Below, piece after piece: positions 5,241-17,209 of a stretch of 64,000 nt of DNA. The first letter of the stretch is position 1. Each line of letters starts with the position of its first letter. The position numbers and the translations under genes are program-made. Source of the DNA: a virus. Taxonomy: Duplodnaviria; Caudoviricetes. The DNA is taken from positions 144,023 through 208,022 of the IMG/VR virus record IMGVR_UViG_3300020048_003360, one strand, 5' to 3'. The notes under the pieces were generated by a model. That model made no database searches. It saw only the letters and a list, made by a program, of their open reading frames with translations, and was not told the origin of the DNA.

Positions 5241-7002
5241 AATCATAGTCATAGTGGTGCGTTATTAGTGAGCCGTCGCTAAGTATTCTTTTTTCTACTG
5301 TTTGTGTAGAAATAATTACTCCATTATTATAATACGGAGAATCGTAGTGCTTATAGGTTTGGTCACTAGTACGTACCCAATCTCTAGTCATGTCTGGCTT
5401 AATGTTAGAGTAAGTATCTGTATGTGTTGTTACCTTTGCGGTATCGTACTCTAATTTTGCCTGCACAAATGCATCCGTTGGAGTCACTACTGTAGTTGTT
5501 TTAGGAACACTAACCAATGATCCATTATGAACTATAATATTTTCCTTAGCATTATTAGTTGTTTTGGCCTGTCCTTTAAATAACGATACTGGATCGCTAA
5601 GTGTTTTATTAAGTCCACTTAATCTATCACCAACTTCTAGTATTGTTTTAGGAAAATTACTAAAAATAGATTTTTCTACAGTAACTGGTTCTGAAAAAGA
5701 TTTTGCAAATAAAAGATCTTGATTAGGTACACTATCTGTAGACAATGCTACAATACTATTGGTAAAGACACTACTAGTTGGCGCTGGAGTTAATATACTA
5801 TCTAAACTAATACCTTCACCAACTACATTAGTAAAATCACTACTAGCACCAATTGCATTAGATAAATCACCCACTTTACCATTACCAACCGTATCTGTAG
5901 ATAACCAATTACTATCTATGGTATTAAACCCACTCATCATATCTACATATGAGTCCTTACCTGTCATAGTTACGCCAGGTGCTGACTTACTAAAGTTTTT
6001 AGCAAAATCTTTAATTATAGTAGGTCCAGATTTCTTTAATAATCCTTTAGCGGTTGATAATGCCATTGCTTTTAATGATTTTAAATCACTAAATTTACTA
6101 ATAGATTTAGCTAAATCTTTAGCTACTTTACTAACAGTAAAGATGTCATTTAATCCACATATTAGCGAACTAAATATTCCACCCATACCTAAACCAGCGG
6201 CTATTTTACCTACATTCGACAATGCAGCTGCTTTTGTCTTTCTATCATCAGTACCAAATGGTGTTGTAGTACAACCATTACTTTTAGCTAATGAGTTTAT
6301 AATGTCGCCCATTGCTAAACTACAATTTAGATCTTTATTTTTTATTCTATATCTACCACCACCATTTGTTCCGTATTTACGTGAATTTAATAAATCTCTA
6401 TTAATACCACGTATTAATGAATTACCAGCACCATCACAATTTTTAGATACTCTATTTATACTGGGAAATAATGTAGGAAATGTTTTATCCAACATAGCTG
6501 TTGGATTAGATAAATCCTTTACTTTTATTTTTTTACTAGCATTGATTAATTTGTCAGTTAAACTACTTTCACTAGCCTTACTACCCTTTAATGCAGCAAC
6601 TGGTTTACTTACGTCAGTAGCCAATATATTATTAATTGTTTTACCAGTATCTGCAAGACTATATATATCAGCCGCAGCAAATGTATCATTAGGTCCAGAA
6701 CTAAATGTAGGTATAGCTAAACTAGAAGACGCCTTACTTAATTCAGCTACTGAACTAGCTAAAGATATATTCATTCCATCAGTAAGTGATATAGGCGGAG
6801 TAACGCTTAAGTTAGCAGCCACAGCACTTGAGGCCGCGCTACCCGCTTTATTTAAATCTTTTGTTATTGTTAGTATATTGGATTCTTCAAAAGCGTCTGA
6901 AACAGCAGTAGTGGTAGCAGCATTATTTTTCGTAAGTGCTGTTTTTGCTTTTTTTGCTGACTTTAATAAAGATAAGCCCATTTCATATATACTATCGGCC
7001 AT
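5239..7002 (-). CDS. Hypothetical, probable virion structural protein
   Basis: 587-aa S/T/A/K-rich ORF with AAGGA RBS; no recognisable enzyme motif. Confidence 0.55.
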   Translation of the reverse strand: MADSIYEMGLSLLKSAKKAKTALTKNNAATTTAVSDAFEESNILTITKDLNKAGSAASSAVAANLSVTPPISLTDGMNISLASSVAELSKASSSLAIPTFSSGPNDTFAAADIYSLADTGKTINNILATDVSKPVAALKGSKASESSLTDKLINASKKIKVKDLSNPTAMLDKTFPTLFPSINRVSKNCDGAGNSLIRGINRDLLNSRKYGTNGGGRYRIKNKDLNCSLAMGDIINSLAKSNGCTTTPFGTDDRKTKAAALSNVGKIAAGLGMGGIFSSLICGLNDIFTVSKVAKDLAKSISKFSDLKSLKAMALSTAKGLLKKSGPTIIKDFAKNFSKSAPGVTMTGKDSYVDMMSGFNTIDSNWLSTDTVGNGKVGDLSNAIGASSDFTNVVGEGISLDSILTPAPTSSVFTNSIVALSTDSVPNQDLLFAKSFSEPVTVEKSIFSNFPKTILEVGDRLSGLNKTLSDPVSLFKGQAKTTNNAKENIIVHNGSLVSVPKTTTVVTPTDAFVQAKLEYDTAKVTTHTDTYSNIKPDMTRDWVRTSDQTYKHYDSPYYNNGVIISTQTVEKRILSDGSLITHHYDYD

Positions 7003-12210: not shown

Positions 12211-12261
12211 AAAAAAAAAATAAATTACCCTATCAGTCATATTATTTTGACTGATAGGGTA
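12211..12261 (-). terminator. Terminator of the tRNA operon
   Basis: taccctatcagtca / tgactgatagggta 14-bp stem next to a poly-A run (poly-U on minus strand). Confidence 0.8.
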
Positions 12262-12818: not shown

Positions 12819-12894
12819 TGGTGGGACCGGAAGGAGTTGAACCTTACATTCTTGGCTTTATGAGAACCCTGCTTCACCGTTAAGCTACAGTCCC
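12819..12894 (-). tRNA. tRNA with CAT anticodon (Ile2 or elongator Met; not initiator)
   Basis: GGGACTG-TA-GCTT-AACGGTG-AAGC-A-GGGTT-CTCATAA-AGCCA-AGAAT-GTAAGG-TTCAACT-CCTTC-CGGTCCC-A-CCA. G1-C72 pair; G27.A43 mismatch; bulged T-stem. Confidence 0.75.
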
Positions 12895-12929: not shown

Positions 12930-13443
12930 CTTAAGATATTTCTATCTATACTGTCATTCTAAATCAAGAGCATTATTTAGAATCTAGACTATGTTATCAC
13001 CATATATTTGGTAGCTCTTACTCACCACACAGGTGGCTTGCTCAAATACTTAGGTATTCCGTTTCTAGTCTCTACACCTTCCTGTTATTCCTTAACGACT
13101 GTACCACTTCGATCCGTGGCCTTGGTAGGAATACTACGAGTTCAGGCTGGCTCGGCGCTGGCATATTAATAACTACCTTAGAACAGTCTTACTGCCGATG
13201 ATTTTTCTTCGGAAAACCATGAAACCATCATCTGCTTCAGATACTTATTAACTTAGCTTTTGCCGAATTTACGGAAATACTACTAGCGGGTTTCCCTTGA
13301 TACGTTACGCCTTTTCGCGTTCGTCTTACTATACCTGATTCCATTAAGGACTCACAAACATTTCTGCTTGCTCTTCGGCGATTATCCTATCCAGGTTATC
13401 GAAAACTGACTACCATATCATTTTTCGCTAGTGACCTATTACG
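12930..13443 (-). ncRNA. Group I intron-type ribozyme A (no tRNA exons)
   Basis: P2 ACTAGCG/CGCTAGT; P3 TTCCGT/ACGGAA; J3/4 AAA; P4 TTCGGC/GCCGAG; P6 GCCTG/CAGGAAGGT; P7 GACTA/TAGTC; P9 hairpins; ends ...TTAAG. Strongly similar to the tRNA-Leu intron. Boundaries inferred by alignment. Confidence 0.85.
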
Positions 13444-14234: not shown

Positions 14235-14489
14235 TTTTTACACTACCTTTTTAACCTATTTTATCCATAGCCACGACTACAGTGCTAATCTAAAGTAACC
14301 AGTGCGGTACTATGCTAGGTGCATAATTGTATAACTCTGCCTAGCGCAAAGCGTGTGTCCTTTACTACTAAAGTTCACGGGAGTAAATGAAGCTATGGAC
14401 TTCATTCAGGGATTTTTCTTCTGATTATGCTCATTGCCGAAGATCCACCCGTCGCACGGTCGTATACCCATGTCCATAGCATGGGTTCC
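14235..14489 (-). ncRNA. Candidate structured RNA of unknown class
   Basis: GC-richer non-coding tract with hairpins ACCCATG/CATGGGT and CCGT/ACGG, plus a GCTATGGA...TCCATAGC...GCTATGGA alternative pairing. Confidence 0.35.
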
Positions 14490-14656: not shown

Positions 14657-14706
14657 TGGCCTCCCGTAGTGGACTCGAACCACTGACCCCAATCTTAGAA
14701 GGATTG
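14657..14706 (-). pseudogene. tRNA-Arg(TCT) fragment lacking its own 5' acceptor strand and D-arm
   Basis: CAATC-CTTCTAA-GATTG-GGGTC-AGTGG-TTCGAGT-CCACT-ACGGGAG-G-CCA, beginning 6 nt after the CCA of the preceding element. Confidence 0.75.
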
Positions 14707-14712
14707 TTTAAT

Positions 14713-14794
14713 TGGCGGGACAGGTGCGACTCGAACGCACATACTCCAATTACGCGGTTAACGACGGCTTAGAAGGCCGTTGCGATACTGCCCC
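14713..14794 (-). tRNA. Atypical tRNA-Arg(TCT)-like RNA with no D-arm and a 23-nt variable region
   Basis: GGGGCAG-TATCGCA-ACGGC-CTTCTAA-GCCGT-CGTTAACCGCGTAATTGGAGTAT-GTGCG-TTCGAGT-CGCAC-CTGTCCC-G-CCA. Acceptor, anticodon and T stems all pair. Confidence 0.7.
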
Positions 14795-15379: not shown

Positions 15380-15454
15380 TGGTGCCCAAGGTGGAAGTCG
15401 AACACCAGATCCCCGCATTACAAGTGCGGTGCATTACCATTCTGCTACAAGGGC
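15380..15454 (-). tRNA. tRNA-Thr(TGT), degenerate, possibly pseudo
   Basis: Perfect anticodon arm CCGCA-CTTGTAA-TGCGG and terminal CCA; two T.T mismatches in the acceptor stem and an irregular T-stem. Confidence 0.65.
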
Positions 15455-15467
15455 TATTTATTAAATA

Positions 15468-15770
15468 TTAATTTGATTGACCAATTGCCATATCGACAAT
15501 ATCTTTCAATGTAATATTATCTTTATACATTCCGTATTCATACTCCTCTAATGGAAAATGAATTAAACTAAACGCCTTACTTAGCTTTTCAGGATCTGAA
15601 ATAACAACAGTTTCTTCTAGCTTAACTTGAGTTTCAATATTAACAGATTCCAAATGAATCTTATTAGTACCAATTATTTCAACATTTGTTTCAAAAATCT
15701 TTTTCATTTCATTTCCTAAATAACCTTTATTCCATAAGGATTTAAAAAGCTCTTGTAATTCCAAGATCAT
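15468..15770 (-). CDS. Hypothetical protein
   Basis: 100-aa ORF; AAGGAG RBS directly after a tRNA 5' half. Confidence 0.6.
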   Translation of the reverse strand: MILELQELFKSLWNKGYLGNEMKKIFETNVEIIGTNKIHLESVNIETQVKLEETVVISDPEKLSKAFSLIHFPLEEYEYGMYKDNITLKDIVDMAIGQSN

Positions 15771-15787
15771 TTTGTTCTCCTTATGGA

Positions 15788-15820
15788 AATCCGGCGCTCT
15801 ACCAACTGAGCTATTGAGGA
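15788..15820 (-). pseudogene. Orphan tRNA 5' half (Asn-type), ending at U33
   Basis: TCCTCAA-TA-GCTC-AGTTGGTA-GAGC-G-CCGGA-TT. A TCCTC start is typical of tRNA-Asn; no 3' half in the window. Confidence 0.75.
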
Positions 15821-15830
15821 TTATTGTAAC

Positions 15831-16359
15831 TGGTGGGGGTAATCGGAGTCGAACCGATATACCTTGCGGTGAGGGATTTTACTTACCACTTCGGTTTTCA
15901 CCGCCAGTCTTAGCCCTTGCGGGTTATCTTCTGTTCGTGGTCTGGACTATGCTATCGCCATATTACGATTTATCACCTTGACTTGACTTTACAAGTGATA
16001 GTTTATAGTCAACCGTAACGTAGGCATTCCGTCTCTAGTCTCTACACCTTCCTAATCATTAAAGCGGAGTTCTCGCTGTCTTTCGACGGATATTTCCAAC
16101 ATTAACAGTTTAGGCTTGGCTCGGCGTTGGCATACACTCATTCGTATCTTTTCAGGAACCTATCGTTTCGGTATTACCAACCTGCAAAGAATTTTAACTA
16201 TTGAGTGTGAAGCGTTCGCCGAATTTACGGAAATACTACTAGCGTCTTTCGATTGAGTCATTACGCCAAGACAGGAAAAGCCCGCCGAGACTACCAACTC
16301 ATTTTTCGCTAGTGACCCATTAAAGAGTCCCTTGTGTCTACCAATTTCACCATACCCCC
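15831..16359 (-). tRNA. trnL: tRNA-Leu(TAA) interrupted by a group I intron (exons 16359-16326 and 15881-15831)
   Basis: Joined exons give GGGGGTA...AGGGA-CT^TAA-AA-TCCCT-CACCGCAAGGTAT-ATCGG-TTCGACT-CCGAT-TACCCCC-A-CCA, with perfect stems and a long variable arm. Confidence 0.9.
15882..16325 (-). ncRNA. Group I intron (444 nt, no ORF) in tRNA-Leu
   Basis: P1 GACU|C...GGGUC with U.G at the splice site; P2, P3 TTCCGT/ACGGAA, P4 TTCGGC/GCCGAG, P7 GAGACTA/TAGTCC; terminal G at 15882. Confidence 0.9.
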
Positions 16360-16465: not shown

Positions 16466-17209
16466 CTATTGAGAATTAAGTATTGTGGCCAGTGCTCTAG
16501 CTTGATTAACTGGCGTACTACTAAAACAATCCGATAATATATTATTATTCTCACTAGCTTTGACTCGTAACTCATCCATTAAGTCTGGATGTAAGCTAGT
16601 CCAAATAGTCCATAGCCTTAAGTATTCTTGCCATAAATCTATTTTAGTGTCTAATGGCGGTTTACCTTTACCTAACCGCCAGTTATTACTACCTGGACTA
16701 TGGGCTTTAACATCACACTGGTAGTGACTCTCTAGATATCTACCATCTGGCATTATCGCATATAGCGCACTAAAACGTTTATCTCCCACACTAGAGCACT
16801 CATACCCACCTTTACGCTGATACGTTACTGTTGGATTGGTATTCTTTATTCCATATTTTATTAAATATACTGGCTTATTTAGTTGTTTCATATAGTCCAT
16901 CATGTGTTTAGTACCATTGGACTTACCATCCCAAAAAACTAATAAAGCGTCAGCAAACTTACCCATTTCGGTATTTCTAATGTATCCTGCTTTCTTACCT
17001 AAGCCAGTCCAGTTAGCTGGAAATTCATATACCTTAATATTATTTAAAAGACCATATCTGTATCCTAGTTTATCGGCACCAGGTGCCATACCAGAAACAA
17101 TAGCAGTGTCTCTATTTATTACTTTTATTATATTGTTTATTGTGTCACTTAATAATTGATAGTTAGTAAATGTTCTAGTACCAGCTACAATTAATTTATA
17201 TTCATCCAT
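16466..17209 (-). CDS. SLOG (YspA/DUF2493) domain fused to a C-terminal NADAR-like domain
   Basis: N-terminus IVAGTRTF...IVSGMAPGAD...FPANW...GKKAGYIRN.EM...ALLVFWDGKS.GT..M is a typical SLOG pattern. C-terminus YECSSVGDKRFSALYA...E.HYQ..VK...GKGK; NADAR-like call is tentative. Confidence 0.7.
   Translation of the reverse strand: MDEYKLIVAGTRTFTNYQLLSDTINNIIKVINRDTAIVSGMAPGADKLGYRYGLLNNIKVYEFPANWTGLGKKAGYIRNTEMGKFADALLVFWDGKSNGTKHMMDYMKQLNKPVYLIKYGIKNTNPTVTYQRKGGYECSSVGDKRFSALYAIMPDGRYLESHYQCDVKAHSPGSNNWRLGKGKPPLDTKIDLWQEYLRLWTIWTSLHPDLMDELRVKASENNNILSDCFSSTPVNQARALATILNSQ

Follow-up and report, generated by a model that had tools for sequence, protein, structure and literature searches.

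A phage gene family of tRNA-Arg(UCU) type in which a covarying helix encloses the anticodon arm and a D-loop-like strand precedes the T arm

The window analyzed here is a stretch of 64,000 nucleotides (nt) from a virus of the Caudoviricetes, covering positions 144,023 to 208,022 of the IMG/VR record IMGVR_UViG_3300020048_003360. On its minus strand, at 14713..14794, lies a gene of 79 nt plus an encoded CCA (82 nt in all) that resembles a transfer RNA (tRNA) for arginine with the anticodon UCU, and that is referred to below as the rewired gene. It opens with the acceptor strand GGGGCAG (14788..14794), which forms 7 base pairs (bp), one of them G-U, with 14717-14723. The only sequence between the acceptor and anticodon stems is a 7-nt connector, TATCGCA, consisting of a TAT that corresponds to U8-A9-U (14785..14787), a CGC strand (14782..14784) and a hinge A in a position-26-like place (14781), which faces a C at 14756. 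The anticodon arm (14764..14780) has a 5-bp stem and the loop CUUCUAA, with the anticodon at 14771-14773. The region from the anticodon stem to the T stem is 23 nt long and reads CGTTAACC-GCG-TAATTGGAGTAT. Its first part is an 8-nt spacer, CGTTAACC (14756..14763), bulged between the anticodon stem and a long-range helix; its second part, GCG (14753..14755), is the partner of the connector's CGC in that helix and the geometric counterpart of D-stem positions 10-12; and its third part, TAATTGGAGTAT (14741..14752), is a strand of D-loop type that stands directly before the T stem. The T arm (14724..14740; 5-bp stem, loop TTCGAGT), the acceptor 3' strand with the discriminator G (14716..14723) and the CCA (14713..14715) complete the gene by direct reading. 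An earlier note, made from the sequence alone, had called the element a D-arm-less tRNA-Arg(UCU)-like RNA, and the three paired stems, the encoded CCA, the 7-nt connector and the 23-nt region that it listed are all present.

In an ordinary tRNA the chain runs from the acceptor strand through the D-stem 5' strand, D-loop, D-stem 3' strand, anticodon arm and variable loop to the T arm. Judged against that cloverleaf, the gene has the 7-bp acceptor stem, the 5-bp anticodon stem with a 7-nt loop (U33, purine at 37) and the 5-bp T stem with TTCRA. It has no D hairpin (a stem of 3-4 bp with a loop of 8-11 nt, between positions 9 and 26), and its variable region is neither the 4-5 nt loop of class I nor the self-paired long arm of class II. 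Detection programs respond to this mixture differently. The Rfam tRNA model RF00005 matches the gene with 34.0 bits and so passes its gathering score of 29, in an alignment that deletes 15 D-arm positions and inserts 20 nt in the variable region; ARAGORN does not call a gene at 14713-14794.

The layout is shared by a family. A blastn search of 50,697 phage records returned about 115 records with the window sequence as query and 263 with a Felixounavirus-type copy. The carriers include Felixounavirus of Escherichia coli and Salmonella, phi92-like Justusliebigvirus, Sugarland-like Klebsiella siphophages, Vequintavirinae-type phages of E. coli and Salmonella with similar phages of about 145 kb from Klebsiella and Proteus, the 348-kb phages 121Q, PBECO4 and 7t3, Pectobacterium phage POP12, and some phages of Streptomyces and Vibrio. 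The full collection contains 70 distinct sequences from 99 loci (cited below by L numbers). The earlier note had staked its reading on homologues that retain the layout, and these clearly exist, all 70 distinct relatives keeping it. The window copy has each of the family's distinguishing features, namely the TAT, the enclosing 3-bp helix, a spacer of the form C-R-T-Y-A-A-N-N and the strand TAA-NN-GGAGTAT; it is intact and agrees with the family consensus at all invariant columns. A strict pattern found 83 IMG/VR contigs; in representative prokaryote genomes totalling 596 Gb it found only 4 contigs, of 6-41 kb and from metagenome-assembled genomes, and 5,426 complete E. coli genomes gave no match. 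The family is large and is almost, not strictly, confined to phage and viral contigs. In metagenome contigs from other, unrelated phages, identity to the Felixounavirus-type locus L393 spans exactly the 82-nt gene and then diverges; the tRNA by itself makes up the conserved or exchanged unit.

Pairing of the connector with the region behind the anticodon arm was examined in alignment A2, which holds 60 distinct ungapped relatives and in which the helix corresponds to columns 11-13 with 40-42. These columns are paired in 100% of cells, with 37 cells altered on both sides, and the three pairs occur as CG59/UA1, UA37/GC13/AU8/CG2 and CG47/GC7/UA6. The whole-structure values of A2 were approached by 0/500 shuffles and by none of the slid registers. 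Over the 70 sequences the helix exists in 10 versions, all of them Watson-Crick: CTC/GAG, CGC/GCG (the version of the window), CAC/GTG, CAT/ATG, CGG/CCG, CGT/ACG, CAG/CTG, CTT/AAG, TCC/GGA and CCC/GGG. The complementarity of CGC and GCG to which the earlier note drew attention is, on the strength of these compensatory changes, a real pair, and the homologue search in phage genomes that it proposed as a check, once run, finds the pair to covary. Next to the helix, columns 14 and 39 also covary (A.C 42, C.A 9, C-G 8, A-U 5 and U.G 3 in the 70-sequence set), an opposition compatible with a hinge pair of the 26-44 kind.

The same columns speak to a different drawing of the molecule, in which a D-armless tRNA would carry a class II-like variable hairpin, UUAA with UUGG within the 23 nt, and CGC and GCG would form no helix. 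Four such pairs are possible on paper, and conservation of the bases keeps 94.5% of cells paired. Compensatory change occurs at 0 of these pairs, a pair breaks at each variation of its 3' partner (13 cells), two of the four (2/4) are G-U, and the hairpin would enclose the GCG strand, which covaries with CGC. We regard this drawing as very improbable.

The remaining helices vary in the same compensated manner. Covariation is found at all 7 pairs of the acceptor stem, with 99% of cells paired, and the anticodon stem covaries across the family; U33 and A37 of the anticodon loop, T54, U55, C56 and A58 of the T arm are invariant, and the connector's TAT is invariant in 70/70 arginine-type members as well as in an isoleucine-type family described below. 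Because the other stems covary while the T-loop, U33 and A37 do not change, selection at the RNA level is indicated. This pattern is hard to reconcile with a decaying pseudogene, that is, an ordinary tRNA-Arg that has lost its D-arm and gathered junk in its variable region. Truncated tRNA pieces do lie nearby in the same array, and the rejection by ARAGORN is what such a relic might earn. Against this, the 79-nt layout is kept in 70 distinct sequences, most members being free of any indel; the phages that carry them are unrelated and infect enterobacteria, Streptomyces, Vibrio and uncultured aquatic hosts; and all four helices are compensated. Only recent copying of one sequence could revive the pseudogene, and the diversity of the stems excludes that, so decay is scarcely a credible account of the family.

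The strand behind the helix has the consensus T-A-A-N-N-G-G-A-G-T-A-T, in RNA UAA-NN-GGAGUAU. When a scan fixed only the connector, anticodon loop and spacer and left this strand free, the N positions were TT, CT, GT, GC, AT, TA or a single base, and the rest, including GGAGTAT, was invariant. A reciprocal scan with the loop strand and T-loop fixed and the spacer free recovered the spacer C-R-T-Y-A-A in all members. Variation limited to the equivalents of 16 and 17 is the pattern of a real D-loop, as far as conservation can tell. We propose that the strand provides, in order, A14, A15, N16, N17, G18, G19, A20, two extra nucleotides, A21 and U48, a numbering deduced from position; U8, A14, A15, G18, G19, A21, U48, T54, U55, C56 and A58 would then all have invariant counterparts in the family. 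The final T of the strand stands at the place of position 48, opposite the A15-equivalent. In one family member (L168:11801-11880, plus strand) the 15- and 48-equivalents are changed simultaneously, from A..T to G..G, a double change that hints at direct contact between them.

Together, the covariation that confirms the CGC/GCG pairing and the D-loop-like conservation of the strand behind it make the label D-arm-less a misnomer, since the D-stem is there, in the form of a long-range helix around the anticodon arm. The suggestion that came with that label, of a rearranged fold in which a GG-bearing segment rebuilds the elbow, is by contrast supported, the pairing being covariant and the segment conserved like a D-loop. 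The order of the chain would be acceptor strand, U8-A9-U, one D-stem strand, anticodon arm, 8-nt spacer, the other D-stem strand, the D-loop-like strand and the T arm. The 5' strand of the helix runs directly into the anticodon stem and thus stands in for D-stem positions 23-25, and the 3-bp helix would stack on the anticodon stem as a D-stem does. Since the displaced strand supplies equivalents of A14, A15, G18, G19, A20, A21 and U48, the usual tertiary contacts could all form; with U8-A14, 15-48, G18-U55 and G19-C56 in place, the molecule could still adopt an L-shape.

These equivalences are also what separates the proposed fold from that of a working tRNA that is flexible and not L-shaped, like the mitochondrial D-armless tRNAs, in which the 12-nt strand would be a protein-binding site. 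A precedent exists in human mt-tRNA-Ser(GCU), whose D-replacement connector joins an extended anticodon stem and which has no tertiary core (PMC9427863). The phage T-loop is fully canonical, unlike the mitochondrial case, the strand has an invariant counterpart for each D-loop nucleotide that would contact the T-loop or U8, and the nucleotide at position 20 follows amino-acid identity. A flexible form is accordingly rated as improbable, if less so than a pseudogene or a self-paired hairpin.

That last observation rests on two families. Bacterial arginine identity is conferred by A20, the main determinant, together with C35, U or G at 36 and A or G at 73 (PMC9976931). Every member of the arginine family has G-G-A and C35, with U or G at position 36, and among the 60 aligned sequences the discriminator is G 36 times, A 21 times and U 3 times. 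The anticodons in the 70-sequence set read arginine only (UCU 68, ACG 1, UCG 1), and CCA is encoded in 48/70 distinct members. The window copy, with G-G-A, C35, U36 and G73, has the complete bacterial arginine set, its position 20 being assigned from its place after G-G. Host arginyl-tRNA synthetase (ArgRS) would read A20, C35, U36 and G73.

The second family emerged from a structural descriptor search over 3.7 Mb of collected sequence, for which reversed and shuffled controls gave 0, 0, 0 and 1 matches. In the real data the search also recovered a copy with the anticodon UAU, and a follow-up scan and blastn led from it to a family with the isoleucine anticodons UAU and GAU, present in 77 Streptomyces phages, a crAss-like Bacteroides phage and many uncultured contigs (L106:5506-5585; L410, L411 and L413-L419; L420:2501-2580; L421:601-667). 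Like the arginine family, it has the acceptor stem, the TAT, a covarying 3-bp helix around the anticodon arm, a spacer, a TAA-N-TGG strand and the T arm; its helix occurs in five versions in the IMG/VR copies and as ACC/GGT in phage Yaboi, all complementary. It differs in a 5-nt spacer, N-G-A-A-A, in place of 8 nt, in a 13-nt loop strand, TAA-N-TGGT..., and in having U, not A, after G-G. The discriminator is A in 11/11 copies. Determinants of bacterial isoleucine tRNAs include A73 and U20/U21 (PMC9976931), which the A discriminator and the U after G-G fit. The nucleotide after G-G thus differs between the families in step with the anticodon, which is what reading of the strand as a D-loop by synthetases would predict.

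The rewired gene also tends to occupy a position in phage tRNA sets that would otherwise be vacant. In the regions examined of phages Iguana and Roth37 there are 24-25 tRNAs, with a canonical Arg(ACG) and no canonical UCU gene, so that the rewired gene is the only UCU tRNA. A canonical tRNA-Arg(UCU) accompanies a rewired UCU gene at 2/46 loci with at least 5 canonical tRNAs. Where at least 10 canonical tRNAs are present, canonical Arg(UCU) occurs at 1/28 loci with a rewired UCU gene versus 3/5 without one. Locus L106 has canonical UCU and ACG genes plus a rewired UCG gene, which there complements the canonical set, and Yaboi and the crAss-like phage combine a canonical Ile(UAU) with a rewired Ile(GAU). 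The record from which the window comes is 208 kb long, with 35% G+C, derives from an aquatic metagenome and is an estimated 78% complete. AGA makes up 49% of the arginine codons of this phage, at 18.5 per thousand. In the whole 208-kb record ARAGORN finds 1 tRNA and Rfam 3, and no other complete arginine tRNA is among them.

It is here that a tRNA mimic must be weighed, one that is processed and not used in translation, serving as an anticodon-nuclease decoy for tRNA-Arg(UCU) or as a regulator or primer. Phage tRNA regions are battlegrounds with tRNA-cleaving defences, and the anticodon loop CUUCUAA is constant in most members, as a decoy would need. A decoy has no need, however, of A20, of a G or A discriminator, of an encoded CCA or of three different arginine anticodons; one would not expect tRNA sets that contain it to lack canonical tRNA-Arg(UCU); and the isoleucine sister family alters its position-20 nucleotides along with the anticodon. 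A mimic of this kind therefore seems unlikely. Because the ArgRS identity nucleotides are conserved and an otherwise empty UCU slot is filled, a decoder is clearly favoured over a decoy, to judge by these sequence patterns. Taken as a whole, the comparative evidence makes it likely that the product of the gene is a functional elongator tRNA-Arg with a rewired core, decoding AGA and probably, by wobble, AGG as well.

Several points weigh against this conclusion. The helix is only 3 bp long, folding of the single sequence does not predict it (z-score -1.08, like shuffles), and the RNAalifold consensus fold omits it. The control group for the mutual exclusion of canonical and rewired UCU genes is small (5 loci), and since the record is an estimated 78% complete, its absent portion could include a canonical tRNA-Arg. 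Truncated tRNA pieces elsewhere in the array (14657-14712 and others) mean that decay is occurring to some extent around the rewired gene. The L-shape and the residue equivalences are deduced from conservation, and for every family member the three-dimensional fold, processing, charging and decoding are predictions. Sequencing runs that contain the window region are aquatic metagenome DNA only, with no RNA run listed. For the Felixounavirus-type locus L393, contigs from two small RNA-sequencing libraries of one study cover the gene, one contig of 225 nt spanning it; their ends, strand and level are not readable and DNA carry-over is possible, and they were not counted as evidence of expression.

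A further step, which we put forward as speculative and consider rather doubtful, would be that the rewiring is adaptive: the two families would be phage-private, non-cloverleaf Arg and Ile elongators, used routinely by bacterial ribosomes and synthetases, that reach the L-shape by a different backbone path. The benefit could, for example, be escape from some host or phage factor that recognizes the D hairpin, or loss of a homing-endonuclease target within the gene.

In the window, the CCA of the rewired gene is abutted by a 5'-truncated tRNA-Arg(UCU) of canonical type (14657..14712, minus strand) that covers positions 27-76 only. What remains is the anticodon arm, followed by a variable loop of 5 nt, the T arm, the acceptor 3' strand, a G and CCA; the 5' acceptor strand and D-arm are missing, and the phage collection contains no close relative of the fragment. 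It is probably what is left of an ordinary gene that was displaced, a reading consistent with the mutual exclusion. A search for its 5' half gave as sole candidate the 7-mer CTCCCGT at 14377-14383 on the same, minus strand, about 275 nt downstream, an exact complement of the fragment's 3' acceptor strand; the sequence after the 7-mer contains no convincing D-arm (no G-G). The match is probably due to chance (about 0.05), although the two segments may belong to a permuted or split gene that joins 14657-14712 and 14377-14383.

Other elements of the array include tRNA-Met(CAU) at 12819-12894, with a group I intron match below threshold just upstream of it (12973-13316, minus strand; 27 bits versus 50, E 6e-4), and a tRNA-Thr(UGU) at 15383-15454 (minus strand) that scores 41.7 bits with Rfam, has two U-U mismatches in the acceptor stem, is overlapped by a 115-amino-acid (aa) open reading frame (ORF) and receives no ARAGORN call. 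Further upstream in the array, at 15730-15905 (minus strand), are two weak matches to the tRNA model (about 14 bits), probably further tRNA fragments. Adjoining the array is a 247-aa ORF (16466-17209, minus strand) with an N-terminal YspA/SLOG-type domain (PF10686, E 5.8e-11). A strong terminator-like hairpin at 12261..12226 closes the array, and a promoter scan of the array gave matches no more numerous than in shuffles.

At other loci, HNH-type and other endonuclease-like genes of several unrelated families adjoin the rewired gene frequently, not universally, and no protein gene is constant as a neighbour across loci. Upstream ORFs, some of them HNH-like, run on into the tRNA gene, where the TAA in the conserved loop strand is their stop codon (L361:4088-4735, L041:5230-6015, L038 and L217), and downstream HNH_3 ORFs begin inside it or just past it (L013, L025, L031 and L293). 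Locus L177 (IMGVR_UViG_3300020037_006570) carries at about 6147-6177, on the minus strand, a 5' fragment of a rewired tRNA-Arg that ends after the loop-strand TAAT; truncated copies of the rewired type thus exist too. In Klebsiella phage Roth37 a second gene labelled tRNA-OTHER (L389:17540-17624, minus strand; 85 nt) lies about 1.3 kb from the rewired tRNA-Arg. In L106, with its cluster of 20 canonical tRNA genes, a match to the Rfam CyVA-1 RNA (5901-5979, plus strand; 52 bits versus 41.4) follows directly on tRNA-Ala.

Hundreds of cultured phages carry the rewired gene, standard laboratory and typing phages among them. In their records it is blank, or annotated as tRNA-OTHER, tRNA-TERM, tRNA-Leu, a hypothetical protein or part of an HNH gene, which leaves systematic gaps in phage tRNA repertoires and in analyses of codon usage. 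The cloverleaf is regarded as universal for bacterial, archaeal and cytosolic ribosomes, its exceptions being organellar truncations or length variants with the same wiring (PMC7609411). If the proposed fold is true, an L-shape is possible without cloverleaf connectivity, the strands of the core being reordered and the tertiary partners apparently kept, and a rewired tRNA would offer a new scaffold for tRNA engineering. We did not find the layout described in the full-text literature, which was searched with motif strings as well; most subscription journals lie outside that coverage, and absence is therefore unproven. A 2020 review of non-canonical tRNAs treats tRNA-Sec, tRNA-Pyl, allo-tRNAs and mitochondrial forms and leaves phages unmentioned (PMC7609411), and a catalogue of candidate RNAs for viruses mentions tRNA-like candidates (PMC10690425).

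Among known systems, the nearest analogue of the phage family in secondary structure is the D-armless mitochondrial tRNA-Ser(AGY). As in the phage genes, the short connector of human mt-tRNA-Ser(GCU) pairs with nucleotides on the 3' side of the anticodon stem, lengthening the anticodon helix and creating a three-way junction; its T-loop is remodelled, and it has no equivalent of G18-G19 and no tertiary core (PMC9427863). Whereas that class is recognized by a remodelled T-loop and missing D-loop/T-loop partners, the phage family has a canonical T-loop, an invariant G-G, a full set of D-loop-type nucleotides and a proposed role in bacterial translation. With class II tRNAs (Leu, Ser and bacterial Tyr) the phage genes share more than 20 nt between the anticodon and T stems; unlike them, they do not combine a variable hairpin of its own with a normal D-arm, the region instead pairing with the 5' connector. 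The order of segments along the DNA is non-textbook, as it is in permuted and split tRNA genes. In those genes, known from the red alga Cyanidioschyzon and from Nanoarchaeum, processing restores an ordinary cloverleaf. A permuted gene has its 3' half upstream and its mature ends internal, whereas in the phage genes the acceptor strands are at the gene ends, the CCA is 3'-terminal and both ends are where they normally lie, so that the rearrangement would persist in the mature RNA. The closest kin in content is canonical class I tRNA-Arg(UCU) (RF00005; ordinary tRNA-Arg genes in L106 and L062), which has the same acceptor stem, CUUCUAA anticodon arm, TTCRA T arm, G or A discriminator, CCA, U8-A9, G-G-A, length and slot in the tRNA set. 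The phage gene differs in having no D hairpin: its D-stem strands flank the anticodon arm and its D-loop comes after, and the connectivity of the core is thereby different.
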